Positions 1,894 through 44,377 of a stretch of 64,000 nt of DNA are shown here, in pieces. The stretch lies in IMG/VR virus record IMGVR_UViG_3300032053_000008; one strand, written 5' to 3'. The translations under genes and the position numbers were made by a program. Under the pieces are notes generated by a model. That model was not told the origin of the DNA. It did no database searches and saw only the letters and a program-made list of their open reading frames with translations. Within the stretch, counting starts at the first letter, position 1. Every line of letters begins with the position of its first letter. The DNA comes from a virus.

Positions 1894-1920
1894 TTATCGG
1901 CTTTTTGGTCAAAAACTTTA
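1894..1920 (-). promoter_or_regulatory. sigma-28 (FliA/SigD)-type promoter
   Basis: Perfect TAAAGTTT-N11-GCCGATAA about 30 nt upstream of the Fis-type gene. Confidence 0.85.
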
Positions 1921-1923
1921 ATA

Positions 1924-2013
1924 GTACTTTTACGTACCAAAAAAGTATTAAATGTTGTACTTTTACGTACCAAAAAAGTATTAAATGTTGTACTTTTACG
2001 TACCAAAAAAGTA
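1924..2013. repeat. 33-bp tandem repeat, ~2.7 copies, each with an imperfect palindrome
   Basis: Unit gtacttttacgtaccaaaaaagtattaaatgtt at 1924, 1957 and 1990 (partial); each has tactttt...aaaagta arms. Confidence 0.95.
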
Positions 2014-2038
2014 ACCCCGGTTAAAAAACCAGGGTTAC
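2005..2038 (-). terminator. intrinsic terminator after the distal tail gene
   Basis: gtaaccc..ggtt/aacc..gggttac stem followed by a U-run on the minus strand. Confidence 0.7.
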
Positions 2039-2063
2039 AAACAAAGGACTAAAAAATGATAGA

Positions 2064-5000
2064 TCAGGTAGAGGTAGAAATGATCTGATAGTCTACGCCA
2101 ACAGCCCACTCAATCGTACTACCCGCCGTCCCAAACACTACAGGTACAATAGTTGTTCCGCCCGATATTTGCAAGGTAGCAGCATAAACATTACCGTCAC
2201 CAAAAGTACCAAAGATATTGCTTTGATAGTCTCCGGCAGCTTCTACAAGTAAGGTGCCAGGATTATAAAAGAAAGTACCTTCAAGCTTAAACGATGCCCC
2301 ACCTAAAGTACCGTTAGATCTACGGCCAACCAGAGACACGCTGACCCTAGCCGCCTGATTAGCTCCAAGAGTTACACCAGCTCCGTTGATAGCCCAAGGG
2401 GCTGCACCTGAACTAGTATTAGCCCAAGTTTTACGTGACCAGGCGCTGCCCGTATAGTTTGTGTGAGTTTTTAGGTATTCGTAACCTGTCCATACATCTC
2501 TTGGTTTGTTGTCTTCGTTACCAATAACAAAAACCTGGTCGCTATTAGGAGACCTAGGACCAAAAATACCCCCAGGAACTGTGCCAAGGTTACCGCTACC
2601 GTTTATTTCAAGGCTGCCTGTAAGGCTAAGAGCTGCTCCTCCAGTAATGGAATCACCGGCCCTAAAATCCACTGGGGCACCAGGAATAGTAACAACAATA
2701 CGGCCACCATCATAAGCCAGCTGCATAGTAACATTACCTGCTAATTTGCTGACAGCTGATCCATATGCGTTAAGTAAACGGAAACGAAGCCGAGATTTAG
2801 GAGCAAAAGCTCTAAGCAGGGTGATCTTACCTTTTGGTCCACCATAAGTTTCCTCATAGTCTACACTAGCTTGGCGCACCGTGTCATTGGTAATAACAAG
2901 TAATTCTTCACCGCTAAAAGCTGGCTCAAGACTAGCCTTAAATACGCAAGGGTCTGGAAATTTGATAAAAGAACCTGATTGAATAGCTGTACGTCTATTT
3001 GGCGGCAACACTATAGTAGTGCTAATGGGGATTTCAGGTGATACAAAAGCTGGGTTGCCTGGATTGTTAATGGTCATGCTAGTGGTGGCACCATTTTGGA
3101 ACAGCGTAGCTCCAGTAGTGAATGTACCGGCATACACATGAACCAAAACATTAGTGGCACCAAAATTTCCACCAGGCATACTTACTGGAGTATTTTCAAT
3201 GGTTTCCGTTACGTTAGCAGTACCATTAAGGACATAAGCGTAGGCGGTTGGATTAACTTGACTACCTGTGTAGATATAAGATCCAGACCGGATTGTACCA
3301 GCGCCTGTGACTGGAATCAAAACTGGGTACACACTTTCATCATACACTGGGTATGAAATGGCTGTGTTAACCCGAGCTGATTCCCTGTTCATTTTACGTA
3401 TACCCAAAGTCAAATTGTCTTGGTTTTGGATAATATAGTTTGTACGCAAATAAGTAATTTGTTGACCTGGCACAACAGCAGTTATTGGCTCTTTAATAAC
3501 AGCAGTTAAGCTAGTAAGAGGGTAGTCAATAGTGTATGTATGGAGCACACTAAAACCATCCACAAAAGTCAATTTGTCATTATTTTGGAAGCCTAATGCT
3601 GGTCCAGACAAAAAGGAGATTTCACGGGTTAGGTAGTTAACATTGTTGACGTTTCCGCCAACTGTCAAGACTTCACTGGCACTATAGTCCCCAGTGGGAT
3701 CAATAAAGGTATAGTTTGGATTAATAGCAGCTTCAGTGTTAGCACCGGTATAAATCAAAAGGTTGGTTGTACTGTTGTCACTGATGTTACGAGTTTCACC
3801 AACACTAAGCTCTATGCCGCGCACATAAACCTTGCTGTTGCCTGGGCCGCCATCTTGTCGCACACCAATCCAATAAACATCTGTACTGGCTGGTACTTCC
3901 CAATGAGGCTTAACTGTAACTATTGGGTAATAACCCCTACAATAAACCAAAGCACCCGTAGCTGTTGGTCTTTGTTGTGGTGTTGGATTTTGGTTGTTAT
4001 CTGTAACTAAATTAAATGTATTTGTCAAAATAGGTGTACCTGGAGTACCAGCAATTTTGTACCAATAGTTTTCAGTTTCTTCACTAAATTTGACGTAGTC
4101 ACCAGACTGCAACGGAGCACCGGCACCGTCAACTGGTGGAACTGGTCCAATTATTGTGTAACTGTTAAAGGTCTGGTAAGTAGTGTTGTCACTTACTGGC
4201 TGATTTCTGATCAGCTCAACAAACAAAACGTCACCGTTTTCCAAGTAAGCCGTACCAGTAATACCACCCGTATTAAACCTGTTAGCCAAAGAAGTGCCTG
4301 TGGCCGTAGCTGTAGCAGGAATAGTAAAGGTTTTTTCGCCAATAATACCCTTAATCAAAATGTCGCTATCCCATGCAACTGGGCCTGGGTATGGGTTGTT
4401 AGGGAACCGAGCATAAGTCTGATCTGAGCCTGGGTTAATATAACTGCTAGGTGGAGGTACAATAAGGGTAGAGTCAGGTGAAAAAGTTCTTGTGATTTTA
4501 AATATAGTTGGGCTAACATATACCAAAGAAACATCAACATATGTACGTATATACGTACTAATGCTAGGTTCACCATAAATAGTAAAATTGATTGGACCTG
4601 GGGTTGTAACATAGCCATGTGGGGTAGCTGTAGTTACCGTTATTTCGTAATTAGGTGAACCAGAGTTCACCATTGACACTACTTTGGACGGGTTAGCTAC
4701 AGCACTGATCGCTACGATACCATCAACCTGGATTGGGCCATTACCTGCTGGCAGAGCTGGCAGAGTGTCTGGACCTAACACATAAGAAAAGTTGGCATCA
4801 TCATAACAAGTAAATATCACATCTGCTAAATTATAGCCGTCAACCGCACAACCGCTTAGTGTGGCTGTAAAGCTATATTCATCATAACGAACTAAAGCAC
4901 CAACACCAACGGTAGCTGTACCTGTTGGTGTAGCGGGTGCAGTATATGTGATTGTAGTGTCTGGATTAACAGTAATACCAATAAATCTACCATTAGGGGC

Positions 5001-6635
5001 ATTAGTGGCGCTTACCAGGCCACTAACAACAATATCGTCACCAGTAATAAATGGGTGTGGACCAATATTAACAGTAATCGAAGCACCAGAATAAGACCAG
5101 CTGGCCGGTATGAAGTGCGGCATATAAGGATGACTGGGACCTGTGTCTTTTGTAATATAATCTGTGCCGATTATGCTTGGTACACCTGTTGGTATGAAAT
5201 TGTTGCTAAACTGGAATACCGTAGAGCTGGTTACATTTTTAACTAAAAACACGCCATTAGGGAGGTTTTCAATAAGGCCGGTGGCTGAAAGGCCGGTGGT
5301 ATAAACATAGTCGGCTGGCTGAAGTCCGTGTGGTGCCGAAGTGGTAATAGTAATTAAATTACCAACATAAGACCAAGTAGCCACTGCTACCGGAACACCG
5401 CTACCTAGCGGTTTACGGGCCATGACTGCATTACGGGTAGTTGTAGCAGTTACAACAGTATCATCCAATTGGAATTGAGCTAGATTTGGTCGCCACAAAC
5501 GTCTATTAAAGAGGGTTTCATCAAAAACGAAACTACCTTTAGCCATAGAGTTGATAACTAATTGGTACTGGTTAAATGATTGCAATATAGCCGTGTTGCC
5601 GGAAGTAACGCCGTAAACGTAACTATCCCCAGGAAGGATAGTTGGATCTGTTTGAACCGATTCATAAGCACCACTGGTAACTGCATCGGTTTCGAGGATC
5701 AAGTTATAGCTAAGGTTACCGCTACCGGTCATAACTGATCCAGCAGCATCCCACCATACATCTAGTGTATTGGGAGTATTATTTGTAGCTGTAGTGGTGT
5801 ACCAATAGTTAGACGCAGTCATTTCTTTGATGCGGGTCATAACCGCATCCATCCAGTCCTTTAAGGTGTTGATACCATTGTCACCGTATCGGAACGCTAA
5901 TGGGTCATCGCCAGGAATAGCTGTAGTTGGGTTACTGTTGATGCTTGGGTGAGGGTTAGTCCACTCTCTACGTGGGTTGGTCGGATATTCGGCGTTATCT
6001 AATCCACCAAAATTATAGGAATAATATGGATTTGGTACAGTTCCGCCAGTTCCAAGTCGAAACAGTTTGTTTTGGCAAGGTGTGATATATTCTACTGATC
6101 CGGTGGTTGATACCCCAACAATGTACAAAGGAAGGTTAGTACTAAATCCAGAAGTATTAATAATATAACGATATTCAAGGATTGCTCCTATGGGTATTAC
6201 TCGATTGAATTGAGCTTTCTGAGATTCAGACCAACCGGATGTTTCGTCAGCTGACGAAGGGTCAGTTACCCGAACCAGCTCAAGTGACACATAATTAGGT
6301 ACACCATTTTGGAACGCACCATTAACTTTAGTATTAGAGCTATTAAGGGTATCGGCTGCGGTACCTGCAGGTACAACCAAAATGGTACCAGATTGGCTTG
6401 CCGTAGAATGAAGGATACAGCTACCAGATACTTCAATTTGAAGGCTATTGGCGTTAATTGCGGCATTAGGAATAGTTATTTCAAACCCAGTACACACATA
6501 TGGCGTTTCAAGTCCAGTAATGACATTACGCAAAACTGAGTCAAAATCGTAGCTTACGCCAGACTCAATAGACCTAAGATGTGGTAAGTCAATGCGTATG
6601 CCAGAGTAACCGGATAGTCGGCGCTTAACAGCCAT
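2064..6635 (-). CDS. large baseplate-distal tail / adsorption protein
   Basis: 1523 aa, beta-rich (T/G/V/P), repeated TxxxHG modules, C-terminal domain similar to those of the tail fibres at 39362 and 41400. Confidence 0.7.
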   Translation of the reverse strand: MAVKRRLSGYSGIRIDLPHLRSIESGVSYDFDSVLRNVITGLETPYVCTGFEITIPNAAINANSLQIEVSGSCILHSTASQSGTILVVPAGTAADTLNSSNTKVNGAFQNGVPNYVSLELVRVTDPSSADETSGWSESQKAQFNRVIPIGAILEYRYIINTSGFSTNLPLYIVGVSTTGSVEYITPCQNKLFRLGTGGTVPNPYYSYNFGGLDNAEYPTNPRREWTNPHPSINSNPTTAIPGDDPLAFRYGDNGINTLKDWMDAVMTRIKEMTASNYWYTTTATNNTPNTLDVWWDAAGSVMTGSGNLSYNLILETDAVTSGAYESVQTDPTILPGDSYVYGVTSGNTAILQSFNQYQLVINSMAKGSFVFDETLFNRRLWRPNLAQFQLDDTVVTATTTRNAVMARKPLGSGVPVAVATWSYVGNLITITTSAPHGLQPADYVYTTGLSATGLIENLPNGVFLVKNVTSSTVFQFSNNFIPTGVPSIIGTDYITKDTGPSHPYMPHFIPASWSYSGASITVNIGPHPFITGDDIVVSGLVSATNAPNGRFIGITVNPDTTITYTAPATPTGTATVGVGALVRYDEYSFTATLSGCAVDGYNLADVIFTCYDDANFSYVLGPDTLPALPAGNGPIQVDGIVAISAVANPSKVVSMVNSGSPNYEITVTTATPHGYVTTPGPINFTIYGEPSISTYIRTYVDVSLVYVSPTIFKITRTFSPDSTLIVPPPSSYINPGSDQTYARFPNNPYPGPVAWDSDILIKGIIGEKTFTIPATATATGTSLANRFNTGGITGTAYLENGDVLFVELIRNQPVSDNTTYQTFNSYTIIGPVPPVDGAGAPLQSGDYVKFSEETENYWYKIAGTPGTPILTNTFNLVTDNNQNPTPQQRPTATGALVYCRGYYPIVTVKPHWEVPASTDVYWIGVRQDGGPGNSKVYVRGIELSVGETRNISDNSTTNLLIYTGANTEAAINPNYTFIDPTGDYSASEVLTVGGNVNNVNYLTREISFLSGPALGFQNNDKLTFVDGFSVLHTYTIDYPLTSLTAVIKEPITAVVPGQQITYLRTNYIIQNQDNLTLGIRKMNRESARVNTAISYPVYDESVYPVLIPVTGAGTIRSGSYIYTGSQVNPTAYAYVLNGTANVTETIENTPVSMPGGNFGATNVLVHVYAGTFTTGATLFQNGATTSMTINNPGNPAFVSPEIPISTTIVLPPNRRTAIQSGSFIKFPDPCVFKASLEPAFSGEELLVITNDTVRQASVDYEETYGGPKGKITLLRAFAPKSRLRFRLLNAYGSAVSKLAGNVTMQLAYDGGRIVVTIPGAPVDFRAGDSITGGAALSLTGSLEINGSGNLGTVPGGIFGPRSPNSDQVFVIGNEDNKPRDVWTGYEYLKTHTNYTGSAWSRKTWANTSSGAAPWAINGAGVTLGANQAARVSVSLVGRRSNGTLGGASFKLEGTFFYNPGTLLVEAAGDYQSNIFGTFGDGNVYAATLQISGGTTIVPVVFGTAGSTIEWAVGVDYQIISTST

Positions 6636-6734
6636 GGGTAGACCTTTATTTGGAGTTGACTTGGTAGGTAGGATATGGGAGCCTACACAAAGATTAAGTT
6701 AACGGGTTATAACCCACAAGTCAAGAGGTTTTTT

Positions 6735-7160
6735 ATGTCATATATGACCAAATTTCTCAAGGATATTGAGAAGTTCAATGAAATGTATCGTTTGCCAAAC
6801 AACACCAAACCAACAAATCTTGGTCCAGAAAGAGCCTATAATTTCAAGAAGATCCTTTGGGAGGAAGTTGAAGAAGGTGAACAACTAATTATGCATCTAG
6901 AAGACCAAGGCTTCGATCTGGACACCCAGGCCGAATTGGCTGACTGGCTAGGTGACATTATCGTTTATTGTGCCAGCGAAGCCCGTAGGTGGGGCATTCC
7001 AATGGACAAAACCTTGAAAATTATTATGGAAAGTAACTTTAGTAAGCTTGACTCGGCTGGTCAGCCAGTGTATGATGATAGAGGCAAGGTCTTAAAGGGA
7101 CCTGACTATTTTAAACCCGAGGCTAAGCTAAGCAAAATGCTTAAGCGGCGTAACAAATGA
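6735..7160 (+). CDS. MazG-like NTP pyrophosphohydrolase (DR2231/PRA-PH type)
   Basis: Motifs EEVEE, ELADWLGDIIVY and SNFSKL....P..DDRGKVLKGPDYFKP. Start at ATG 6735 after a GAGG RBS. Confidence 0.85.
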   Translation: MSYMTKFLKDIEKFNEMYRLPNNTKPTNLGPERAYNFKKILWEEVEEGEQLIMHLEDQGFDLDTQAELADWLGDIIVYCASEARRWGIPMDKTLKIIMESNFSKLDSAGQPVYDDRGKVLKGPDYFKPEAKLSKMLKRRNK

Positions 7161-7161
7161 G

Positions 7162-8025
7162 GTGTTTATGTTAAGGTTTTTGTTGATGTTTGTGCTTTTT
7201 GTGTCTGGTATAGCACAAGCTGAAAAGATTGAGCTAAAAGCTACCAATACTGTTGGTTTTAATGATGTAGTTGAAGAAAAGAGTATTACCCTACTTTTAG
7301 CTCAAATTAATGAACTTGACTCTAAGTTACCAGAAGGTGAGCCAATTTATTTGGTTATAAATACTCCTGGAGGTGAAATTGTTTGGGGTTTAGAGTTTAT
7401 CGAATTCATTAAAAACCAAAAACGGCCTATCCATACAATTACTTTGTTTTCAGCTAGTATGGGTTTCCATATTGTGCAATCTTTGAATAAAAGGTATGTG
7501 GTTGAATCGGGTATTTTGATGTCTCATCGGGCCAGTGGAGGGTTTCAAGGTCAATTTCCAGGTGAAGCCGATAGTCGAATGAGGCACTGGCTTAATCGAA
7601 CTAAACGTATGGACAAAGAAGCGGCCAAAAGAGCTGGTAAAAGCGACCAGGAATATCGAGAATTGGTCCAAAACGAATACTGGTGTGAAGGTCAGGGATG
7701 TGTTGATGATGGATTTGCTGATGAAACAGCAAAAGTTAGTTGTGATCAAAGCCTTAGCGGATATAAAAGTCAAACAACCAAACAAATAGTTTCGGGCCAT
7801 TTGATTGTATTTAAAGCTTTTTATTCTGCTTGCCCAATTAAAACGGGCTTAGTTGATTGGGACATAACAGTAGATGGACAAAGTATAACAAACCCCAAAG
7901 TTAATGACGCTGGGACACCAAAGCTAGTCTTTAGTGCCATGGAAACTGTTGCTATCAATAAGTTTATTGAAGAACAAACAGACAACCTTAAACGCCGTTT
8001 TGAAAACATTAAAGGTCAAAAGTGA
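7162..8025 (+). CDS. ClpP-like serine protease with signal peptide
   Basis: IYLVINTPGG, SASMG (catalytic Ser) and LMSH (catalytic His); N-terminal hydrophobic stretch ending AQA. Confidence 0.8.
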   Translation: MFMLRFLLMFVLFVSGIAQAEKIELKATNTVGFNDVVEEKSITLLLAQINELDSKLPEGEPIYLVINTPGGEIVWGLEFIEFIKNQKRPIHTITLFSASMGFHIVQSLNKRYVVESGILMSHRASGGFQGQFPGEADSRMRHWLNRTKRMDKEAAKRAGKSDQEYRELVQNEYWCEGQGCVDDGFADETAKVSCDQSLSGYKSQTTKQIVSGHLIVFKAFYSACPIKTGLVDWDITVDGQSITNPKVNDAGTPKLVFSAMETVAINKFIEEQTDNLKRRFENIKGQK

Positions 8026-8492
8026 GTTTTTTTAATCTAAAATTCTTTATAGTTGAACCTCAAAAACAAATAAGAATCCAAGAGATATTGTTTGATCTTG
8101 GGTACAAATATAAAGAAGATTTTGACACTATCAGACTGGGTGACAAAGAGTTATATCTTATAACCTTTGATGATGGTTCTATGGTGTCTAGTGATGACTT
8201 AGAAGATGATTATGATCTTACATATAGTCACCACAAAGAGCTTGATCTAAGGTCCCTGATTGTCATGGAAGGACAACACAAAGGACTAGGTCAAGCACCT
8301 AAAAATGTTACCAATATGGCTATTAATCAAGCACTAAAAGATGCCAAACATTTGTGGCTTTTATTGGATTGTTTAATGGACAATTACAAACAGGTTCATC
8401 AAACAATTGACTACCACCAGGCTGTTGCACTTCAAATGTATTTATGTAATATGGAAACAATAATACAAAAAACAATAGACCGGACAGATTAA
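8022..8492 (+). CDS. hypothetical protein
   Basis: ORF coupled to both neighbours by overlapping start/stop codons. Confidence 0.7.
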   Translation: MSFFNLKFFIVEPQKQIRIQEILFDLGYKYKEDFDTIRLGDKELYLITFDDGSMVSSDDLEDDYDLTYSHHKELDLRSLIVMEGQHKGLGQAPKNVTNMAINQALKDAKHLWLLLDCLMDNYKQVHQTIDYHQAVALQMYLCNMETIIQKTIDRTD

Positions 8493-8788
8493 TGCATAAT
8501 GTTGTATGTTTATTATCTTTTTTGTTGTGGTCTTGCGTTACGGATGCAAAAAACACCAAAGATATCAAATGGAAATATGATATAGGTCAATGTGTTAGAT
8601 TCGATCCCGCCAAATTCAAAAACTCTGATGGTACTCCTATTCTAATAGTAAACAGAACAAACAAAACTAAGCTTTATTCGGCACAAATAGAACACCCCTT
8701 AGTGCCAGGAATAACAAGCTTTACAGCTTTAAAGATTCCTTTTGAACAGGACACGATTACTACACCATGTAAAAAAGGTACAAAATGA
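8492..8788 (+). CDS. putative lipoprotein / secreted protein
   Basis: Hydrophobic N-terminus ending LWSC; coupled ORF. Confidence 0.6.
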   Translation: MHNVVCLLSFLLWSCVTDAKNTKDIKWKYDIGQCVRFDPAKFKNSDGTPILIVNRTNKTKLYSAQIEHPLVPGITSFTALKIPFEQDTITTPCKKGTK

Positions 8789-9042
8789 AAACTTTTTGGT
8801 CTAAGTTAAGGAAAATTCTATTCTTTTATTGGATTTTTTGCTATTTAGTGGCTTTAAGTGGTAACAGTTATATGTTTGGCATTAATCGCCAACAATGGGA
8901 CTTAACCGCTTTTAGCTTTATTTGTGTCCAATCTTTAATCCCAAGCATAACTAATATGCTATTTGTTCCTTTGGTTGTTGTTCATGGACTTACAACTGAA
9001 CATGCAAGTAAGCCACACCCAGATGAAGGTTTATCTGCATAA
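8785..9042 (+). CDS. small membrane protein
   Basis: Two hydrophobic segments; ATGA overlap. Confidence 0.65.
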   Translation: MKTFWSKLRKILFFYWIFCYLVALSGNSYMFGINRQQWDLTAFSFICVQSLIPSITNMLFVPLVVVHGLTTEHASKPHPDEGLSA

Positions 9043-9058
9043 AACATTGTTTCAAATT

Positions 9059-9095
9059 AAACCCAGCACTTTTTAGTTGCTGGGTTTTTCTTTTT
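9059..9095 (+). terminator. intrinsic terminator
   Basis: aaacccagca/tgctgggttt stem followed by T-runs. Confidence 0.85.
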
Positions 9096-9099
9096 GCGT

Positions 9100-9126
9100 T
9101 AAAGTTTTTCCAGTTTCAACCGATAA
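9100..9126 (+). promoter_or_regulatory. sigma-28-type promoter
   Basis: TAAAGTTT-N11-ACCGATAA (1 mismatch), directly after the terminator and 30 nt before ATG 9157. Confidence 0.8.
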
Positions 9127-9156
9127 CGTTTAGGTAAGCAGCAATAAGGGGGATAT

Positions 9157-9396
9157 ATGAGTTTTGAAAGAATGATTAGGGAACTAGAAATGCAGCGCGA
9201 ATTTGGCGATGCATGCCTGACAGATCCGGACCAGATCGTTGCTGCGCTTATGGCTGGACGGGCTATGAGGAGCTATATAAAATTGGGTACTACCGTTAAT
9301 GGGATGACATTACTTGGACATATTCCTACTGAAATGGCTCATGAAATTGTCTATACTTTGGAAGCTTGGGACAAATCTGTAAAGGAACAAAAATGA
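9157..9396 (+). CDS. hypothetical protein
   Basis: AAGGGGGA RBS; first gene after the sigma-28 promoter. Confidence 0.75.
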   Translation: MSFERMIRELEMQREFGDACLTDPDQIVAALMAGRAMRSYIKLGTTVNGMTLLGHIPTEMAHEIVYTLEAWDKSVKEQK

Positions 9397-9770
9397 AGTT
9401 TTTATTGATTTTATTGGTTTTTTTTGCACTAGAAGCTCAGGCTAAAGTAACTGAACTTACTTTAGACCTTAAACGTATGCCATTTAACCTTGACTATTTA
9501 TTTCCAGACCAAACTGATTGGGACTATGAAACACGTCTAAACTTTAGCGGTGAAATTGGCATTTTTTTTATGGACAACAAGGTTACCGGTCGTACATATG
9601 ACAACCGATACCACTACGTGTCTTGGGGTTTTGATATGGGTTTTCGCGTCACCGATTGGTTAGATGTGGTTCATACTCATCTTAGCCAGCACGCTATAGA
9701 TATTTACCGTGAAAAGTTTCCAGTTACTGATAGTTATGGTGCTAGACTTAACTTCTTAGACAAAAAGTGA
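9393..9770 (+). CDS. secreted protein, possible small outer-membrane beta-barrel
   Basis: Signal peptide MKFLLILLVFFALEAQA; amphipathic aromatic-rich beta-strands; ends YGARLNF..K. Confidence 0.6.
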   Translation: MKFLLILLVFFALEAQAKVTELTLDLKRMPFNLDYLFPDQTDWDYETRLNFSGEIGIFFMDNKVTGRTYDNRYHYVSWGFDMGFRVTDWLDVVHTHLSQHAIDIYREKFPVTDSYGARLNFLDKK

Positions 9771-9777
9771 GACAAAA

Positions 9778-9966
9778 ATGATTAAAAAGTTGCGCAATCG
9801 TTTTCCTGATGCCACGTTTGAAGTAGCTTTTACAAATGAACTGGTAGTTACCTACAAAAACGCAAGTCTTATTGTTGACAAAACATGGGGACTTAACGAA
9901 AGTATCAAAGAAATCAACGACTTTATACGTGACATTAACATAGAACTGGAGCAAAAACATGGCTAA
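9778..9966 (+). CDS. hypothetical protein
   Basis: 62-aa ORF filling the gap within the operon. Confidence 0.6.
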   Translation: MIKKLRNRFPDATFEVAFTNELVVTYKNASLIVDKTWGLNESIKEINDFIRDINIELEQKHG

Positions 9967-10657
9967 GAAACCTAGCAAACCTTTACCTAAACTAAAGAAA
10001 AAACCAATAAAATCAAAAACTAAGAAAAAAAAGCCAACGGTAAAAGCCAAGAAAAAAGCTTTAAGTGATTTTATTGACAACATGGAAAAATTTGATATTG
10101 GTTTTGATCTTGACGAAGATGTTTGGACATTTGAACCCACTTTAAAGGCAACAAACAACACTCAAACAGTTAATTATAAACCAGTTTCCGGAGAAACTTT
10201 ATTGAAGTGTGAAAACGTAACAATCACACCAAGCTTAAACTCTGATATAATGTCTGCTGCTTTGTCTATTCCATATAGTTATAAGATTGTTATGACCGAA
10301 GTTCCTGAAAACCTTAACGATAAATCCGACAACAAAGACAAATGGACAAAAAATGCTCCTAACCATGAATGTTTAATAATACACGATGAAATCATTTTAG
10401 ATCTTAAATACTATACCGACGGCAATGACAGGAAAATTGTCGGAGATATAGTACCAGCTAATGGATATAACCCAGGCCAGATATCCTTGGAATCAGTTAA
10501 CAAAGGAGAATCTAAGCTGGTGTACACAAATCATGACCGTGTTGTGTCTATGCCAATTTGCGATGGTTATGATTTGTACCTTTTAATGAAATATTGGTTT
10601 GAAACCGCTGAAACCGACCACTTAGCTGAAACTGTTATTTACCAAAGGACCAAATAA
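9959..10657 (+). CDS. hypothetical protein with Lys-rich N-terminus
   Basis: MAKKPSKPLPKLKKKPIKSKTKKKK...; GGAG RBS. Confidence 0.7.
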   Translation: MAKKPSKPLPKLKKKPIKSKTKKKKPTVKAKKKALSDFIDNMEKFDIGFDLDEDVWTFEPTLKATNNTQTVNYKPVSGETLLKCENVTITPSLNSDIMSAALSIPYSYKIVMTEVPENLNDKSDNKDKWTKNAPNHECLIIHDEIILDLKYYTDGNDRKIVGDIVPANGYNPGQISLESVNKGESKLVYTNHDRVVSMPICDGYDLYLLMKYWFETAETDHLAETVIYQRTK

Positions 10658-10992
10658 TGGACCAAGGTAAAAAAATACACTACACCAAAACAGGCAGATA
10701 CGCTCCTATTAACAAAGCTTTTGACAAGCCCGTTCTTAGAAAATTCTGTAAAACTCATGGTCATACACCCTGGATAATAGGGTGGTATAGGCACCCCGGT
10801 GTGTGTATGTTTTATGTGGCAAATACCGGAATGTGTGGGTGCAGCGAAATTGGACACATAATGTCTGGCATCCCAGAAGACTATCCAATAAAATACCCAG
10901 AAAAGCCTTGTCATAATGGGATACAAATGATGTATTATTGCGTGAAGTGTATTAAGGCTGGTGGATATGGCCCAATAGGAGCTGATGAATGA
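10657..10992 (+). CDS. Cys/His-rich hypothetical protein
   Basis: AAGGA RBS; CxxH, CxC and CxxC motifs. Confidence 0.65.
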   Translation: MDQGKKIHYTKTGRYAPINKAFDKPVLRKFCKTHGHTPWIIGWYRHPGVCMFYVANTGMCGCSEIGHIMSGIPEDYPIKYPEKPCHNGIQMMYYCVKCIKAGGYGPIGADE

Positions 10993-11852
10993 TCAAAGCA
11001 CAAATCGTATTAGACAGTATTGGTCACCATGGTATCCGTTTGACCACTATGGCTCTGGAATACCCACGCTACATCCACGCTGAATTAATGACACACAGGC
11101 AGTTTAGCAGAAATGCCAGTAGTTCTAGGGCTATACCTGTATCAAAGATGATTGAAAAAGCTAAAAGCGAAATGGTTATACCTGATTATTGGGGTAAAAA
11201 CCAAAAAGGAATGCAAGCTAGTGAACAGTTAGACCACGGTCTCAGGATTGAGGCCACTAGGGTGTGGGTAGCTCAAGCGGAATCGGCTATTAAGGCTGCT
11301 GCAGACTTGTCTAACCTTGGCGTACACAAACAAATTGCTAATAGGGTCTTAGAGCCTTTTACGACTATCACGGTGCTAGTTACTGGTACTAAGGATGCCT
11401 ATAGTAACTTTTTTGCTTTGCGGAACCACAAAGATGCTCAGCCAGAAATCAAAGGTTTAGCTGAAGTGATGTTGAATGCATACAAGGCCAGTATACCTGG
11501 TATACTTAGTGTAGGCGATTGGCACATGCCTTATATTACCTTGGAAGACACCCAATCTTTGGTTGACCTGGACTACGGTTCTTTGCTAGAGATATTGCTT
11601 AAGGTGTCCGCTGCTCGGTGCGCTCGGGTTAGCTACTTGACACATGACAAAAAAAGTCCAGATATGGTACAGGACTTAGATCTTTACGCTAAGTTGGTTG
11701 GAGGTAAGCCGATCCACGCAAGTCCCCTAGAACACCAAGCTGAATTGATGTCTAGTGCTAGTTATCAGTCAGCTAACTTTAAGGGATGGAAACAATACCG
11801 GCAAACCATGCCTAACCAATACATTACCGACTATTTTGAGCAAGCTGAATGA
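10989..11852 (+). CDS. thyX: FAD-dependent thymidylate synthase
   Basis: ELMTHRQFSRNASSSRA ThyX motif; HKQIANR.LEPF, LR.H..AQPEI, SAARCARVSY and HASPLEHQA. Confidence 0.92.
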   Translation: MIKAQIVLDSIGHHGIRLTTMALEYPRYIHAELMTHRQFSRNASSSRAIPVSKMIEKAKSEMVIPDYWGKNQKGMQASEQLDHGLRIEATRVWVAQAESAIKAAADLSNLGVHKQIANRVLEPFTTITVLVTGTKDAYSNFFALRNHKDAQPEIKGLAEVMLNAYKASIPGILSVGDWHMPYITLEDTQSLVDLDYGSLLEILLKVSAARCARVSYLTHDKKSPDMVQDLDLYAKLVGGKPIHASPLEHQAELMSSASYQSANFKGWKQYRQTMPNQYITDYFEQAE

Positions 11853-12052
11853 CTAAACGTTATTTGTTAACTTTCTTGGATTTTTGTATATTTGCTTTAT
11901 TTTTTGGTGGATTGTGGTATGTTCAAGTTGAAACAATTGACTGGTTTTATGATCTAGATTATGGGTTATATTTGATTGTGTTTTTACAATTTATGGCTAT
12001 TTTTTTTGTGTCTTGTAGTTTAGCAAAATACATTGAATGGAGAGAAAAATGA
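11849..12052 (+). CDS. small two-TM membrane protein
   Basis: Two hydrophobic helices; ATGA overlap. Confidence 0.65.
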   Translation: MTKRYLLTFLDFCIFALFFGGLWYVQVETIDWFYDLDYGLYLIVFLQFMAIFFVSCSLAKYIEWREK

Positions 12053-12492
12053 AAAAAACTCTTTTTTTTATAACATCTTGTTTTTTATGGTCTTATTGTA
12101 TACTTTTAGTTTTTTTATTAAAAGTGCAAATAACTGAAAAAGCAGAAACAATACAATATTCAACCCTTTTGTTTGGTGGAATAGTTTTACATTGTTTATG
12201 CTTGACTACTATTGAGCTAATTAAGAATCCAAAAAAGTACTATCGCAGACTGTTTAGTCAACGTGTAAACATTTACCGTATGAGTGCTTTGTTTTTTGGA
12301 TGTCATTTAGGTGGAACAAAAGATGATCTTATGGTGGAGATTTTTCTAGGTAAGCGTAGTGTAATTATTGATTTATCTTTGCCTAGTCATCGAAATTGGG
12401 TAGATAAAAAGGACGAAGAAATCGATGAATATCTGATAAAAGAATTTATCAATGAGACTAAAGTTTCTGACCAAAATGCCGATAAGGTTTAA
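12049..12492 (+). CDS. membrane protein
   Basis: Two N-terminal TM segments; start at ATG 12049 after a GGAGA RBS. Confidence 0.65.
   Translation: MKKTLFFITSCFLWSYCILLVFLLKVQITEKAETIQYSTLLFGGIVLHCLCLTTIELIKNPKKYYRRLFSQRVNIYRMSALFFGCHLGGTKDDLMVEIFLGKRSVIIDLSLPSHRNWVDKKDEEIDEYLIKEFINETKVSDQNADKV
12459..12485 (+). promoter_or_regulatory. sigma-28-type promoter facing antisense into structural genes
   Basis: Perfect TAAAGTTT-N11-GCCGATAA with no plus-strand gene downstream. Confidence 0.75.
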
Positions 12493-12527
12493 GTAACTGC
12501 CAGTAGCCTACCATAATGGCCTGCCAA

Positions 12528-12995
12528 TTACCCGCCGTAAGATACCCACATACCTGTGAAACTCACACTGGCCTGTAGCGTTTGCCTAGCCTGGAACGCT
12601 ACCTGCCAGCTCGTCACTTTGCAAAACTCTATACTAAGTAACAATTCACCTGTTTGGCGGTCATAAAAACGGAAATGACAATACCGGCTTGGGGCTTGCT
12701 GAGGATAGCTGTTGGTTTCAGATTGACTATCTACCGTTGGAGCCACTAAACCCATACGGATAGGGTCAGTGCCTTTGAGCATAAATAGGTTCATAGAGCC
12801 TTGGACCATACTCTGACCAGCTGCCAGGGCAATCTCTTGGGGGAATACCGAGTCAACGCCCATGATGTTTTGGGCACCAAGCGACTGGCTGAAGTTCAGG
12901 CCGCTGGCGTAGCCAATGGTTCTTTCAACTGCTTCACCAGATTCGTAAGCTATGGCCAACCTGACGCTAGCGCCAGTATATAACATAGTTTGCAT
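12528..12995 (-). CDS. tail tube-like protein (second paralogue / tube initiator)
   Basis: YTGASVRL..IGYASGLNFSQ...G...PQEI pattern resembles 47736..48209; follows the wedge gene. Confidence 0.6.
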   Translation of the reverse strand: MQTMLYTGASVRLAIAYESGEAVERTIGYASGLNFSQSLGAQNIMGVDSVFPQEIALAAGQSMVQGSMNLFMLKGTDPIRMGLVAPTVDSQSETNSYPQQAPSRYCHFRFYDRQTGELLLSIEFCKVTSWQVAFQARQTLQASVSFTGMWVSYGG

Positions 12996-15679
12996 TAAAT
13001 TTGTGCCTCAAAAAACGTGTCTGCCCCGTAAATATATACAGCTTCACTGGTAGGCGGATCTAAAACCGAGTCACTGCCTCCCTGATTTCCCCAACCTTGA
13101 TCTCCTGGATAAATAATCTTGATTTCCATTTTGATACCAAGGGCCGTAATAGCTGAAATAACTTCCTGAGCATATATGCGCCCTTGAGCGGTGCCGGTCA
13201 CGAATAATGGAAAATCTTTACCGTCTTCACTAGGAGTGTAGGCATCAGCCGAACTTAGCTGGGTGATGTCTGATCCGGCTTGGTGGTTTTTGGTGTATTG
13301 ATTGCTTGGGTCCAGAAGCACGATAGACCTGGCTCCATCTACCACACCAATAGCATAGCCTTGGCTGGCCGACAATATCGCTGGAGTGCCAGATTGACAT
13401 ACAAAAATGGTTGGCGATGGAGTGCTAACCACTTGGTAAGTTCCATCCATTGCGGTAAGGGTACCGCTAATAATGACTTGACTGTTCACTAGCAATCCGT
13501 GCGGCCCAATGGTATTAACCGTGATCAAAAAACCGTTTTGGCTGATAGACAAAATAGGCACACTGGGCGGACTGTTGAGCGGCTGGACAGCTATGTACCT
13601 AAACGGACCCTCTTCATTGTCCTGGTCAAGGTTTAGCATAAACAAACCAGACTCATTAGGTAATGTGCCGTTTATTTGGATATTAGTTAGTGTTGCACCG
13701 GCTAGTATTGGCTCTCTGGTGTAAGCGTAATGGGTAGTAAGAGTGTAATTGTCTTGGGCATCTGTGGCATAAGGTCCTGGCCATTGGTCTGCTGGATTTT
13801 GGCTATCTGTATCGATAATATTTACCGTAATAGAACAAGTGTCGTCTGTGACTCTGGTGCCAAATGGGTCAATATATGATTTAATTAAATGAGGCTCTGT
13901 ACACACAACAGTAGTGGTAAATTGTTCTCTATGGACCGAGTTTATAGCTATTGACCGAACTGGGGTACTAAAGGTTGCTGTACCTCCTATAGCGGTCATA
14001 TCATAGCCATTTTGCCTGAAACTAAAAGCATAGTCACTAATAACTACAATCTTTTGGTTCCATTCAGCAGTAGTTAAGTCGTTATATACCCACTGACCTT
14101 GCTGGAGTGTGGTGATCGTAAATGGTGTGCCGCCTTCGTTAGCGTCTGGGGTACGTGGGCCAGCAACAAGGTCTGTAGCTGTTACCGTGTCTGATGCTAT
14201 AGTAGTAGACCACCAACCGGCTGAGTTAATCACGGCCTGAACTGCACTAGCCACAACGTTAGCCGGGCTACCAGACACTATTTCAATTTGACTGTATTGG
14301 TTAGCTATAAGTAACATAGCTGCTGGAGGGGTCATGGTTGTGTTGTCTACATCTACCCAAAACCCGTAATAACCGTATTCATATGGGATAAAGAAAAAAG
14401 TGTCTTGAAGTGATCCGCCAACATCAGCTACGCACAAAACTTCAGTTACTTCATGACCTAATGCCGTATTAAAACCAGGCGAAGAGTTACCGGCACTTAC
14501 GTCAAAAGTAAGGCTAGATTGACCAACGTGCATATATGCACCGCCGGGCAGTTCCCTAGAGATAATGCTGGTAGTAGCTGGCAAATAGATTTTTAGGTAG
14601 TCGCCAGGTTCATAAGCTAAAGCGTATCGAGTTTTGTTGTTTGGTACGTTTTTCTTAGGAAGCATAAACATAACGTCAAAATTGGTAGCTTGGATCAAGG
14701 TATAGCTATAATAAGTTGGAGGGGCATTAGGTGGTGGGCTGGCTCCAGCCTGGACCGCGCTAAGTCCACCAGTTTCTTCTACAACAATTTCAAAGTAACC
14801 TGCATCAAGGTTAGGTGCATTTGTTGCAGGTAAAACGTTAACTATGTCATAGGTACCTGAAAAGCCGTTTTGTTCCCACATTGCACCATACATCATAACC
14901 TTGTCGCCAGGTTTAACTGACTCCAAAGCTGGTTTAGTATTACCAGACCATCTAAAGCGCAACACGCTACCAGATGGACGGGTTACCTGCCAAGCGGTAT
15001 CGGGCATAGCTAGTGATGTCGGTCTTATTTGAGGGAATTGTAAATGGGTTTGAGCTTTACCGCCAAGTATGGTGACAGTAGAATAAGGACCTTTAGCTCC
15101 ACCAAAAACTCTAACATATTCTTTTTTGTTGACCAAGTCATAGTCTACATCAGCGTAACCATTTAGGTTTAAGCTATTAATATAACGGGTTATAACGTCA
15201 GCCACTTCTGAAGCAGTAGCCGCAGCAATACTAGCAAAATCACTAGAATAAAAAACCACACTACGAGTAATGCCATCTTCTAAACTAAACAACAGGTCGT
15301 CGCCATCTTCCAGATTAAAAGGGCCAAATAGTGTGGAAGTTGTAAAAGCTCTAACAGCTGCCGGGCCATAAAAGATTTCTAATACAGATTGGATAACCTC
15401 AACAATTTGCTTTTGAGCTGTGATCTTAATACCAAGGCGACGAAAAGCTAGATCACTCATACCAAGTTCTGGTGGACGGGTTATACCTTTTTCGCTTAAG
15501 CGTTTGTCTAAGTATGGGCCAATAGCAGTTGATATGGTTAACTGGTCAGTTACCGATATACTAAGATTTTCTTGTTTTTGGGCTTCATCGGCCAAAGCGG
15601 ACACTAAAGCATCTGAATTAGTCCCAGTGATAAAGGGGGCTATATAGCGTCTGATGTCTATTTCTTTGTTTACACTCAC
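12995..15679 (-). CDS. baseplate wedge protein
   Basis: N-terminal A.G.YLD....GI.RP..MSD..FR motif typical of wedge (gpI-like) proteins; 894 aa. Confidence 0.7.
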   Translation of the reverse strand: MSVNKEIDIRRYIAPFITGTNSDALVSALADEAQKQENLSISVTDQLTISTAIGPYLDKRLSEKGITRPPELGMSDLAFRRLGIKITAQKQIVEVIQSVLEIFYGPAAVRAFTTSTLFGPFNLEDGDDLLFSLEDGITRSVVFYSSDFASIAAATASEVADVITRYINSLNLNGYADVDYDLVNKKEYVRVFGGAKGPYSTVTILGGKAQTHLQFPQIRPTSLAMPDTAWQVTRPSGSVLRFRWSGNTKPALESVKPGDKVMMYGAMWEQNGFSGTYDIVNVLPATNAPNLDAGYFEIVVEETGGLSAVQAGASPPPNAPPTYYSYTLIQATNFDVMFMLPKKNVPNNKTRYALAYEPGDYLKIYLPATTSIISRELPGGAYMHVGQSSLTFDVSAGNSSPGFNTALGHEVTEVLCVADVGGSLQDTFFFIPYEYGYYGFWVDVDNTTMTPPAAMLLIANQYSQIEIVSGSPANVVASAVQAVINSAGWWSTTIASDTVTATDLVAGPRTPDANEGGTPFTITTLQQGQWVYNDLTTAEWNQKIVVISDYAFSFRQNGYDMTAIGGTATFSTPVRSIAINSVHREQFTTTVVCTEPHLIKSYIDPFGTRVTDDTCSITVNIIDTDSQNPADQWPGPYATDAQDNYTLTTHYAYTREPILAGATLTNIQINGTLPNESGLFMLNLDQDNEEGPFRYIAVQPLNSPPSVPILSISQNGFLITVNTIGPHGLLVNSQVIISGTLTAMDGTYQVVSTPSPTIFVCQSGTPAILSASQGYAIGVVDGARSIVLLDPSNQYTKNHQAGSDITQLSSADAYTPSEDGKDFPLFVTGTAQGRIYAQEVISAITALGIKMEIKIIYPGDQGWGNQGGSDSVLDPPTSEAVYIYGADTFFEAQI

Positions 15680-15688
15680 GAAATTACC

Positions 15689-15922
15689 TTAGTGTTTTGA
15701 ATTTGAAACACACTTAACGCATTTTTCAAAAAGATACATTGTATTATGAGATACAAATTGATTAGAAAAAGATTGTGTCCATTGTGCCCCGCAACACCTA
15801 CAGCCGCACTTTATGTCAACAGGGAAAATGGCCTGGATCATTGTGCCAATACCTATGTTTCTGTCAGTCAGTATTGTCTGTTGTTTTGGTGGGTTGAGTA
15901 TTGTCAGTAGTTTTTTTAACAT
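15689..15922 (-). CDS. small Cys-rich (Zn-ribbon-like) protein
   Basis: CGCRCC...CVKC; start uncertain. Confidence 0.5.
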   Translation of the reverse strand: MLKKLLTILNPPKQQTILTDRNIGIGTMIQAIFPVDIKCGCRCCGAQWTQSFSNQFVSHNTMYLFEKCVKCVSNSKH

Positions 15923-16015
15923 TATAGCAATACCCGCAAGAACATTTAAGCCAGCCAAGATTAGCTAACCTGGTTTCTGGGTGGTAGATCATCCACGTGG
16001 AGCACTTAGGACATA

Positions 16016-16288
16016 TCACTTGAGGTCATCGTTTCTAACTACCCTCAGTCCTTTTGGTTTTTTTGTGTCTGGTGGTTGAATTTTATCTAAGCGAGCATTT
16101 AAGGCCAACATTCCACCTGAAATAATTGTATCCCAAGTACGCACCATGTCAACCTCTTTATTATAAACAGCTTCTACTCTGGCGTGGATCTCTTGAAATG
16201 ATCTTAGCCCCTCTTGACTTAGCTTGAGGTTTACACTATATCCACTTGTTGGCTGTTTGTCTTTTTTCTTGAACCAATTCCAAAACAT
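16016..16288 (-). CDS. hypothetical protein
   Basis: ATG 16288 (MFWNWF) after a GGAGG RBS. Confidence 0.7.
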   Translation of the reverse strand: MFWNWFKKKDKQPTSGYSVNLKLSQEGLRSFQEIHARVEAVYNKEVDMVRTWDTIISGGMLALNARLDKIQPPDTKKPKGLRVVRNDDLK

Positions 16289-16303
16289 ACGGTCCCTCCA
16301 AAG

Positions 16304-16333
16304 AAAAAGCCTCCCTAAGAAGATTAGGGAGGC
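16304..16333 (-). terminator. intrinsic terminator-like hairpin
   Basis: 10-bp stem gcctccctaa/ttagggaggc with a U-run on the minus strand. Confidence 0.7.
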
Positions 16334-16362
16334 AAAAGTAAGCACACGTCTGGGGGTATGTA

Positions 16363-17300: not shown

Positions 17301-17330
17301 AACGGTATCTCCTAAATTGTTTCTAAAGCG

Positions 17331-17359
17331 ACTATGCCCCAAAATGGGTCCAAAGTCAA
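17331..17359 (-). promoter_or_regulatory. sigma-70-like promoter for the SLT operon
   Basis: TTGACT-N17-CATAGT. Confidence 0.5.
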
Positions 17360-17363
17360 TGTT

Positions 17364-35328: not shown

Positions 35329-35513
35329 CCAAGGATAACTTAATCAAATTGGGCAGTTATAAAAAAGAAGTCCATGAAAAAGAAGAGATCTTACGTTGGC
35401 AAAAAGAACAAAAAACAGCCCAACGTTGGAGATTTGCTGGTGTTTGTATAATGTTTGTCAGCGCTATTGGTGTTACCGTGTCTTTAAGTCTGTTATTTTC
35501 TAAATTGTTCTAA
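35325..35513 (+). CDS. small C-terminally anchored membrane protein
   Basis: 62 aa with a C-terminal hydrophobic helix. Confidence 0.6.
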   Translation: MTKDNLIKLGSYKKEVHEKEEILRWQKEQKTAQRWRFAGVCIMFVSAIGVTVSLSLLFSKLF

Positions 35514-35537
35514 AGTTTTTCCAAAAATAGCCGATAA
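35511..35537 (+). promoter_or_regulatory. sigma-28-type promoter
   Basis: Perfect TAAAGTTT-N11-GCCGATAA. Confidence 0.85.
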
Positions 35538-42356: not shown

Positions 42357-42371
42357 TGAAATTGCTCCTAT

Positions 42372-43007
42372 TTATATAACTACTACGTTACCATTATTAT
42401 CAATAACTATAGCTGGATCTTCTTTAATGTAGGTACTGGAATATAGATCATATTGCACTCTTATAGATCCAGCTGGAGTATATTCATGGGTAATTATATC
42501 ATTATAATTTACTAGGTTATCTTGAGTGTGAAAATGGTCCACCCTGTTATATATTATACCCCCCAGTTCTGGTCTAGGTGGGGTAGTGATATTGGCGTTA
42601 AACATACTTCCACCAGTGCTGCTTTGGCGAGCAACAGATGGATCGTTTATGACCACAAACATTCTGCCGTCTAAGGTCGCGGTTCCTACATAGTCCTGTA
42701 TTAAAAATCCTACGTCCCCTGGAACAACCGTTATAGTATTGGTCAAGTTGTCATAGTTAGATACCTTAAATAGTTTACCTGTATTGGGTCCACCAGAGGT
42801 CACCCTAAAGTAACATCCATTTTTAAGCCAATTTGGTATCATAGCAGGACTAGAAAAAGTGATAGTCTGGTTAGCAGCACTAAAAGCCATAGTGCCAGAT
42901 GATATCTCACAATAGTCATCAACGCCAGTTAGCTTTTTAGATCTACCACCCCAAATAACATTTAAACCTATTAATTTTTTAATAAACTGTGGCCATGTTT
43001 CTAGCAT
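42372..43007 (-). CDS. virion structural protein
   Basis: Beta-rich; shares a P.WLK.G....V..G.N.G....V..Y module with 43001..44323. Confidence 0.55.
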   Translation of the reverse strand: MLETWPQFIKKLIGLNVIWGGRSKKLTGVDDYCEISSGTMAFSAANQTITFSSPAMIPNWLKNGCYFRVTSGGPNTGKLFKVSNYDNLTNTITVVPGDVGFLIQDYVGTATLDGRMFVVINDPSVARQSSTGGSMFNANITTPPRPELGGIIYNRVDHFHTQDNLVNYNDIITHEYTPAGSIRVQYDLYSSTYIKEDPAIVIDNNGNVVVI

Positions 43008-44323
43008 GGGTTGGTATCTCCGGTATATATATCTGCCCCGTCAACATCACTATATGCAGTAGAGACTCTGGTTACCTCTAGAGCACAGCCGTAACTGAAA
43101 TTAGTGCTTTTAATTTTATCCCCAAGAGATCCGTTTAAATTGGCAATTACATCTACAGTAGCAACAGGTCCAGGCACAACAGAAATAAAAGCAAACCTAC
43201 TGTCTAAATAACCAACACCGCTACCAGCAACAAAAGTATCACCAATTACTATACTGTTATAAATACTGAACTTCAAGTCTATAGTTTCATTGGCCGTTAG
43301 TCCAGTAAAGGTAACCTTTTTCTGGCTGATGTTATAGCTAGTGACAGTTAAAGTAAGCCCAACATTTAAGCCGTTGATTACTTTAATTTTCCTGCCTATC
43401 ACTTTTAGCCACTCTGGTACCGTCTTGAAAACCATGGTACCAAGGCCGCTATTTATCACCACTTGGTCCGAAGACTGGTTAAAGGTGCCGTAGTCCCCAG
43501 ATACTATCTGGTGTATGATACCGTCATTTGCACCGGTTCCCGCTGCCTGGAAATACTTAGCTTTTTTGGCCGTAAGGTATTCTGGAGCTAGAGCATTAAA
43601 GTAGATGGTATTTGTAGTAAAGATCACGTCACCCGATTGAGTTAAATAGGTGTTTTCGTAATCATTAAAGCCAGTTATCGTATAGGTAGTTTCGTTTACT
43701 GGACTACCATCTCCCGCAGTTTCATAATAATACAAAGAGCTTGGGTTAGAGGCCATAAACGGCAAAGGGGTAGTAAAAATGGCTATACCAGCTGGAACAT
43801 CACACAAGCGCATACTACCCAAATAACCCTTAGATTGGTCTCTAACAAATTCCCTTATTTCCCTAAGGTTATATTGGCAATCATAGACAAATCTTGCCTC
43901 AGGGTAGTCGGTGTCTAGGCTGCCTTCTTGGGTGGTAAGGTAATTACCGTGTTGGCTAACCAGTGCGGACCTGACAGCCAATATAGGCTCTTCTGCTAAG
44001 GTCATCTTGCCGGGTTCTGTGCCTACCGGGTAAACCCTGGCTTGTTCTGGAGCATCTAACATACCGCCAGTAAACTGAGCTAGATTCAATGAACTTAGGT
44101 CTTGATTGTTTTCGAGCTTGACCGTTATAAATCTAGCGTCCCAGACCCTAGCTATGACCAGCTCGGTACTAAAAAGACCATTTTTACGCAAAATTAACTT
44201 TTGACCAACAAACAAACCGGTAGTAGTATACACTTCTATGGTGTTACCATTTACTGTTATATTCTCGATGGTTATACGGGGCCAAGTTTGGGCCGTCAAC
44301 CCTGAGCCTATTTGCTTGTCCAC
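43001..44323 (-). CDS. virion structural protein
   Basis: First gene of the fibre operon; beta-rich; AGGGG RBS before GTG. Confidence 0.6.
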   Translation of the reverse strand: MDKQIGSGLTAQTWPRITIENITVNGNTIEVYTTTGLFVGQKLILRKNGLFSTELVIARVWDARFITVKLENNQDLSSLNLAQFTGGMLDAPEQARVYPVGTEPGKMTLAEEPILAVRSALVSQHGNYLTTQEGSLDTDYPEARFVYDCQYNLREIREFVRDQSKGYLGSMRLCDVPAGIAIFTTPLPFMASNPSSLYYYETAGDGSPVNETTYTITGFNDYENTYLTQSGDVIFTTNTIYFNALAPEYLTAKKAKYFQAAGTGANDGIIHQIVSGDYGTFNQSSDQVVINSGLGTMVFKTVPEWLKVIGRKIKVINGLNVGLTLTVTSYNISQKKVTFTGLTANETIDLKFSIYNSIVIGDTFVAGSGVGYLDSRFAFISVVPGPVATVDVIANLNGSLGDKIKSTNFSYGCALEVTRVSTAYSDVDGADIYTGDTNPC

Positions 44324-44349
44324 TTACGCCCCTTTTTGACCACCGGCAC

Positions 44350-44377
44350 TAAAGTTTTCATACAATTGTGCCGATAT
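44350..44377 (+). promoter_or_regulatory. sigma-28-type promoter (N12 variant)
   Basis: TAAAGTTT-N12-GCCGATAT upstream of an AGGAGG RBS and the TTG start at 44416. Confidence 0.65.

Follow-up and report, generated by a model that had tools for sequence, protein, structure and literature searches.

This article concerns a 64,000-nucleotide stretch of viral DNA (IMG/VR record IMGVR_UViG_3300032053_000008) and a set of predicted promoters along it that carry the recognition sequence of the bacterial flagellar sigma factor, sigma-28 (FliA/SigD). The stretch, hereafter the window, is numbered from its first letter and corresponds to positions 8815-72814 of a 136,843-bp IMG/VR viral record (G000) that CheckV estimates to be 84% complete. 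Six predicted sigma-28-type sites lie in the window, and they are listed here with the features that stand directly beside them; amino acids are abbreviated aa, open reading frame ORF and helix-turn-helix HTH.

1894-1920, minus strand: sigma-28-type promoter, perfect match; heads the gene for a 68-aa Fis-type HTH protein, then small ORFs
1656-1862, minus strand: 68-aa Fis-family HTH_8 protein (PF02954, E = 1.9e-11), first gene of the 1894 unit
1924-2013, no strand: perfect tandem array, 33 bp x 2.7, between the terminator at 2005-2038(-) and the promoter at 1894-1920(-)
9100-9126, plus strand: sigma-28-type promoter, one mismatch (ACCGATAA); follows the terminator at 9059-9089 and heads a seven-gene unit, 9157-12492, that includes ThyX (10989-11852)
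12459-12485, plus strand: orphan sigma-28-type promoter, perfect match; shares bases with the stop codon of ORF 12049-12492 and is directed toward convergent genes (12528-15679(-)) at their 3' ends
17678-17704, minus strand: sigma-28-type promoter, perfect match; follows the terminator at 17707-17736(-) and heads a 58-aa ORF, an SLT transglycosylase gene (16587-17300) and a 71-aa ORF
35511-35537, plus strand: sigma-28-type promoter, perfect match; heads a single gene, 35659/35740-36438, with no family match and a leader of 120-200 nt
44350-44377, plus strand: sigma-28-type promoter variant (N12, GCCGATAT); heads 44416-45542, three small ORFs and, last, the gene for an Rrf2-family regulator (45198-45542)

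A promoter class of the flagellar type

The motif TAAAGTTT-N11-GCCGATAA is perfect at four of these positions, 1894, 12459, 17678 and 35511, and the two remaining sites depart from it only downstream of the -35 box, the one at 9100 by a single mismatch in the -10 box and the one at 44350 by a spacer of 12 nt and an altered -10 box. The -35 octamer itself is exact in all six sites of the window and in 10 of the 11 copies found in the whole record (six in the window, five elsewhere). An earlier note, made from the letters of the window alone, had placed the six sites at these same coordinates, one-mismatch site and N12 variant included, and had assigned them to the FliA/SigD consensus; both octamers and their spacing do agree with the published sigma-28 consensus, TAAAGTTT-n11-GCCGATAA (PMC2859248), so that the assignment stands, and the genome-wide scan that the note had proposed yields, at one mismatch or fewer, nine matches in the record against none for the reversed motif. 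Within the window, dinucleotide shuffles lead one to expect 0.09 matches where there are five, and none of 100 shuffles reached that number. The density of sites in the record is 66 per Mb, compared with 0.5-7 per Mb in five bacterial genomes that encode FliA. The sigma-70-type consensus, scanned over positions 1-19000, gave 39 matches versus 45.5 in shuffled sequence, no excess, and therefore no large set of sigma-70 promoters is evident in that region.

The sites also lie where promoters should lie. Across the record, eight of 11 sit 24-45 nt 5' of a Shine-Dalgarno sequence and start codon (scored as a positional bias, eight of 11 fall 20-90 nt 5' of a co-oriented start codon, binomial P = 7e-10), another two are separated from their genes by longer leaders (144 and 209 nt), and the eleventh has no gene behind it. 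In the window, five of the six precede a Shine-Dalgarno sequence with a start codon, and the Fis-type gene may serve as the example, with AAAGGAG 7 nt before its ATG and a distance of 38 nt between CCGATA and that ATG. Terminator hairpins stand directly 5' of two sites, 9059-9089(+) before 9100 and 17707-17736(-) before 17678, and at the first site, read along the minus strand, the terminator (2005-2038) is followed by the 33-bp array (1924-2013) and then by the promoter (1894-1920), just as the earlier note had described: two sites directly behind a terminator and a third behind a terminator and the array. Sequence match, statistical excess and placement together support a real promoter class of the sigma-28 (FliA/SigD) type.

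What the sites would drive is broader than the accessory cassettes that the earlier note saw at the head of five of the six. The count of five holds for sites preceding a Shine-Dalgarno sequence and start codon; the units themselves are not only accessory, since they include ThyX, a dCMP deaminase, SbcC, the SLT transglycosylase and two regulators. The copies outside the window head the dCMP deaminase unit, a Zn-ribbon/SbcC unit and several small membrane-like ORFs, and the site before the Zn-ribbon/SbcC unit is kept at the orthologous position in two close relatives (42% and 32% G+C). Such a set (regulators, nucleotide metabolism, recombination, small ORFs) resembles an early or middle programme more than a collection of purely accessory genes. 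No virion gene was seen behind any sigma-28-type site, and the claim that none is driven holds as far as it was tested: the 17678 unit stops at a strong terminator, 16304-16333(-), upstream of an 894-aa gene. That gene matches a "kelch repeat protein" of Myxococcus phage Mx1, the closest cultured relative (OR576727.2, 169.6 kb, complete; sheath 37% and sigma factor 28% identical). That the 17678 site might precede a second sheath/tube pair was considered and rejected, the 894-aa protein having no sheath similarity in addition to its kelch-repeat match, and the tube match being marginal.

Several smaller observations belong to the same neighborhoods. Downstream of the terminator at 16304-16333, within a 90-aa ORF, lies a near-consensus sigma-70-type promoter, TTGACA-16-TACAAT (11/12), at 16125-16152(-), and it could be the driver of an 89-aa ORF and the 894-aa kelch-repeat-like gene. 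The 33-bp array may hold binding sites for a regulator, for example the 68-aa Fis-type protein itself in an autoregulatory loop, or may act as an upstream enhancer. A different repeat, four tandem units of about 41 bp (..TCAATAAAGTATGTTAT..CTTTAAGTGATAAATGTC), occupies an intergenic position just before the window (G000 7639-7852, window -1175..-962), 5' of a 437-aa minus-strand gene. The SbcC unit adjoins a gene for a Cpn60/GroEL-like chaperonin (586 aa, G000 111240-113000(-)) that is kept in all relatives examined (L061, L200-L202). The orphan at 12459 may be the source of an antisense or small RNA; no Rfam family was found in the window, the orphan included, nor any tRNA, and a search for a FlgM-like anti-sigma factor found none.

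A second promoter class without a -35 box

A second motif, TTAATCTTAyCC, which has no -35 box, is found on the virion-side operons. In its TAATCTTA form it has 12 minus-strand copies and a single plus-strand one. Of the 12 copies of the core TTAATCTT, nine belong to the minus strand and seven lie 20-90 nt 5' of co-oriented starts (P = 9e-8), and the copies share no -35 box. Four candidates fall in the window:

6690-6697, minus strand: candidate late core TTAATCTT, 62 nt 5' of a 1523-aa gene, 2064-6635(-)
44376-44385 (core 44378-44385), minus strand: candidate late core TTAATCTTAT, 62 nt 5' of a 440-aa gene, 43001-44323(-)
52677-52687, minus strand: candidate late promoter TTAATCTTATC, 39 nt 5' of a 469-aa head-cluster gene, 51239-52648(-)
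60012-60021, minus strand: candidate late promoter TAATCTTACC, 30 nt 5' of a 131-aa gene, 59596-59991(-)

Beyond the window five further late-type copies head minus-strand operons, including one in front of the gene for a baseplate- or tail-fibre-like protein, and L200 and L201, the two closest relatives, have the motif as well. The two classes meet at 44350-44385, where the TTAATCTTAT core on the minus strand stands back-to-back with the sigma-28-type promoter on the plus strand and overlaps its -10 box inside a divergent region of 92 bp; this arrangement could be an early-to-late switch, in which RNA polymerase sitting at one promoter excludes the other.

The phage-encoded sigma factor

The record has a single gene of the sigma-70 family, at 115710-116705(+), which would correspond to 106896-107891 in window numbering and so lies outside the window, and it encodes a protein of 331 aa. 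Its presence raises a first alternative, namely that the phage sigma factor, either alone or together with a phage protein that reads the -35 box, recognizes the sigma-28-type sites, in which case the regulon would be self-encoded and independent of the host FliA. The earlier note had asked whether the phage encodes a FliA-like sigma factor, and the answer is divided: a phage sigma factor exists, but it is RpoD-like, its family has no region 4.2, and it is not FliA. The evidence for this description comes from several directions. The Pfam Sigma70_r2 match to its region 2 falls below the cut-off (18-21 bits versus 24). A profile of the family aligns over regions 1.2 to 4.1 with RpoD/SigA chains (E = 6e-12), and against PDB chains the alignments stop at residue ~567-571 of E. 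coli RpoD; the 60 PDB matches listed include no FliA entry. The 13 NCBIfam matches at E <= 1 likewise lack the FliA/WhiG model (TIGR02479), a model that does detect FliA when run as a control on five bacterial genomes. A profile search gave no Sigma70_r4 match, and 18 of 18 homologues (325-359 aa) end right after "..QKxLKLKxG", at the point where the region 4.2 HTH should start. In an AlphaFold model (pLDDT, the predicted per-residue confidence, 78) the C-terminus consists of two helices with no recognition HTH, and a Foldseek comparison matches the model to primary sigma factors over its full length, with probability 1.0 to sigma-A chains. In a hidden Markov model alignment with RpoD, moreover, V and A stand at the positions of two tryptophans of the -10-melting segment, which I take to be the residues that melt the -10 element in sigma-70. 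By sequence and by predicted structure, then, the protein is RpoD-like and not sigma-28-like, and is without the region 4.2 HTH; no way is known in which such a protein could recognize a -35 box like TAAAGTTT. A motif that has no -35 box, like the separate one described above, suits such a protein better.

The distribution of sigma factor and motif among genomes bears on the same alternative. This sigma family marks a lineage of uncultured phages of 130-180 kb that includes Mx1, with at least 80 loci in IMG/VR. Mx1 has no site in its 169.6 kb even at two mismatches or fewer, and among 22 large sigma-bearing contigs (15 of 22 at least 90% complete) 21 have none, the only exception being the closest relative (G015, sigma factor 42% identical), which has 13. 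Conversely, a complete and unrelated 118-kb phage genome with terminal repeats (G009) has six clustered sites and no sigma gene, and another genome (G008) combines sigma-28-type sites with a different sigma factor, a full-length RpoD-like one. The strict 19-base motif is present in 50 viral contigs ranging from 28 to 58% G+C, with the same order of promoter, Shine-Dalgarno sequence and ATG, and it does not differ from the consensus that bacteria of many phyla carry. Motif and phage sigma family are thus uncoupled in both directions. Searches among cultured phages added nothing further: megablast of 10 kb gave no match, and BLAST of a 42-nt promoter consensus gave only chance matches inside coding regions. 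In favor of a self-encoded regulon one may say that, within the lineage, the motif is confined to a sublineage whose sigma factors are at least 42% identical to the present one, so that a change of specificity peculiar to this sublineage is conceivable, and that in two more distant relatives (L202 and L061) an N12 sigma-28-type site heads the plus-strand operon containing the sigma gene, which could be autoregulation. If the host factor reads it, the same arrangement would put the phage sigma factor directly under host sigma-28, as a cascade; in the present phage only a sigma-70-like sequence, TTGACC-N17-TAAGGT, is found upstream of the sigma operon. Taking all of this together, I consider it unlikely that the phage sigma factor reads these sites.

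Which sigma factor reads which motif

With sigma factor and motif uncoupled and the phage protein without region 4.2, a FliA-type sigma factor of the host becomes the best candidate reader. The reading that I favor, at a probability of roughly 0.6, is that the 11 sites are sigma-28-class promoters read by host RNA polymerase carrying a flagellar-type sigma factor, that the phage sigma factor serves the TTAATCTTAyCC class, and that the two form a cascade. The motif, its statistical excess, placement and conservation, the domain composition of the phage sigma factor and the uncoupling of its family from the motif are shown; which sigma factor reads which motif, the timing and any link to motility are inferred. 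In such a programme the host holoenzyme would transcribe short, terminator-bounded units carrying small ORFs, the Fis-type HTH and Rrf2 regulators, ThyX, the dCMP deaminase, the SbcC unit and the SLT transglycosylase, after which the RpoD-like phage sigma factor, itself without region 4.2, would serve TTAATCTTAyCC before the large minus-strand virion-side operons, the order being host sigma-28 and then phage sigma. That TTAATCTTAyCC is the phage sigma factor's promoter is probable, because a motif without a -35 box fits a sigma factor without region 4.2 and because it recurs in L200 and L201, so that the case draws on this genome and two close relatives. The earlier note had pictured a simple hijack of the host factor, and this part of it has to be given up, since a second promoter class and a sigma factor of the phage's own point to a mixed cascade; its proposal that early expression is tuned to motile, FliA-active cells stays a hypothesis.

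A number of observations weigh against the reading just given and should be set out together. The perfect site at 12459 heads no gene. When the flanks of 58 viral sites were compared with those of 117 bacterial sigma-28 sites, a T before GCCGATAA was common to both; conservation downstream of the -10 box was higher in the phages, which have a semi-conserved element there (GATAAG.atTaT.taAg), whereas in the bacterial sites nothing but a weak TA close to the expected start is conserved, and something beyond plain sigma-28 recognition may act downstream of -10 in phages. In the 22 sigma-bearing relatives the late motif, taken as an exact word, shows no excess over its reversed control. Phi1422, the only sequenced Bdellovibrio phage checked, has no sigma-28-type site, and a Bdellovibrio-like host gains no support from it. 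Finally, the record being 84% complete, a gene of the FliA type may lie in the missing part, although none is in the sequence of G000 or G015.

This last point amounts to a second alternative, that a FliA-type sigma factor encoded in the missing ~16% of the phage genome reads the sites. The gene map of a contig with identical proteins does extend at least 10 kb beyond the record's start, so that there is room for such a gene; yet the visible part of this map shows tail-fibre genes, an HNH gene and small ORFs of 53-202 aa, too short for a typical FliA of ~240 aa; at least 14 small ORFs come after the tail-fibre genes on the opposite strand, an arrangement consistent with an early region. G015, with its 13 sites, has in 108 kb no sigma factor beyond the one without region 4.2, and G009, which is complete, has the motif and no sigma factor at all, all of which makes a hidden phage FliA quite improbable. 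Least probable of all, and by my estimate very unlikely, is that the sites are not sigma-28 promoters in function and are instead targets of a phage DNA-binding protein, or a repeated cassette descended from one copy that happens to resemble the consensus: the copies within this genome do share a T-tract/A-tract spacer palindrome and a downstream AAGGTTTAAGTAA, the first driven gene encodes a Fis-type HTH protein and a tandem array lies beside one site, but conservation peaks exactly on both octamers at N11 spacing, the spacer and flanks vary between phages of 28-58% G+C, the placement 24-45 nt before Shine-Dalgarno-led starts and directly after terminators is typical of promoters, and the strict motif also occurs in FliA-encoding bacteria of many phyla. 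As to the downstream element, its reverse complement was considered as a hidden late promoter and dropped, phages without this sigma factor keeping a different downstream element.

If a host flagellar-type sigma factor does read the sites, one would like to name the host. The labels of the metagenome-assembled genomes that contain sigma-bearing contigs (Saccharibacteria, Flavobacteriaceae, "Deltaproteobacteria", Saprospiraceae, Gammaproteobacteria, Kaiserbacteria) were tried for this purpose and are uninformative, and the motif does not discriminate either, because its strict 19-base form is found in bacteria of many phyla. A resemblance between phi1422 gp46 and the 68-aa protein was likewise rejected as host evidence, the similarity (51% over 37 aa) being only at the level of the HTH_8 domain. 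It is tempting to go one step further and suppose that one Mx1-like sublineage rewired its host-dependent promoters from the primary to the flagellar sigma factor because its host can be infected mainly when sigma-28 dominates, for example as Bdellovibrio-like attack-phase cells or where capture occurs via a rotating flagellum, with sigma-28 launching the infection, the phage sigma factor taking over late and 44350-44385 as a possible switch; I offer this scenario tentatively and regard it as doubtful.

Comparison with known systems

The class 3 flagellar promoters, which FliA reads in E. coli and Salmonella and SigD reads in Bacillus, have the same octamers and 11-nt spacer, four of the window sites being perfect by this standard, and the phage sites differ from them in three respects: their density is roughly 10-100 times the bacterial one, they drive regulatory, nucleotide-metabolism and recombination genes in place of flagellar and chemotaxis genes, and they carry extra conserved sequence 3' of the -10 box. 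One prophage gene, flxA in the Qin prophage of E. coli, is FliA-dependent, and it is likewise a phage-derived gene under a sigma-28 promoter; that case is a single gene in a defective prophage, whereas here there is a genome-wide class in a large phage of the virulent type.

The phages T4 and SPO1 offer the closest parallels for the order of events. The late promoters of T4 that depend on gp55 consist of TATAAATA without a -35 box, SPO1 runs a cascade of gp28 followed by gp33/34, and in both phages the host sigma factor used first is the primary one (sigma-70 or sigma-A). The present phage would likewise use host-sigma promoters first, and it has a sigma factor without a -35-reading domain together with a late motif without a -35 box before virion genes; it departs from T4 and SPO1 in that its host-type promoters match an alternative sigma factor, and its own sigma factor, much larger than gp55, retains regions 1.2 to 4.1. 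Mx1 shares with the present phage the synteny of helicase, sigma gene and small ORF as well as the kelch-repeat homologue, and differs from it in having no sigma-28-type site and in base composition (55% G+C over the 12 kb read, versus ~41% here). The host of Mx1 is non-flagellated.

A bacterial precedent for the wider use of the motif comes from Bdellovibrio bacteriovorus, where FliA directs the greater part of the attack-phase programme and 92 of 140 attack-phase promoters carry a FliA-type motif (Karunker et al., 2013; PMC3627812). There the sigma-28-type motif is used far beyond flagellar genes, and the regulon can be taken as a model for why a phage might adopt such promoters, although it is a bacterial one and no link was found from this phage to a Bdellovibrio-like host.

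Meaning for phage biology

Textbook phage programmes begin from the primary sigma factor of the host. A full-text search of the literature turned up no paper in which a phage of the lytic type runs a class of its promoters from sigma-28, and the programme proposed here would be a combination of two things that are each known, host-sigma-dependent phage promoters and a cascade through a phage sigma factor, now with the flagellar sigma factor in first position. The genome carries an alternative-sigma promoter class and an unusual sigma factor of its own with a separate motif, so that the division of labor between the two is directly testable; and since the sigma-28 consensus is the same across many phyla, laboratory strains could stand in for the uncultured host in tests of these promoters. 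If the class does depend on the flagellar sigma factor, phage expression would be gated by the motility or life stage of the host, and this would affect which cells are productively infected. The same pattern in about 50 viral contigs suggests that the strategy is widespread and so far undescribed.

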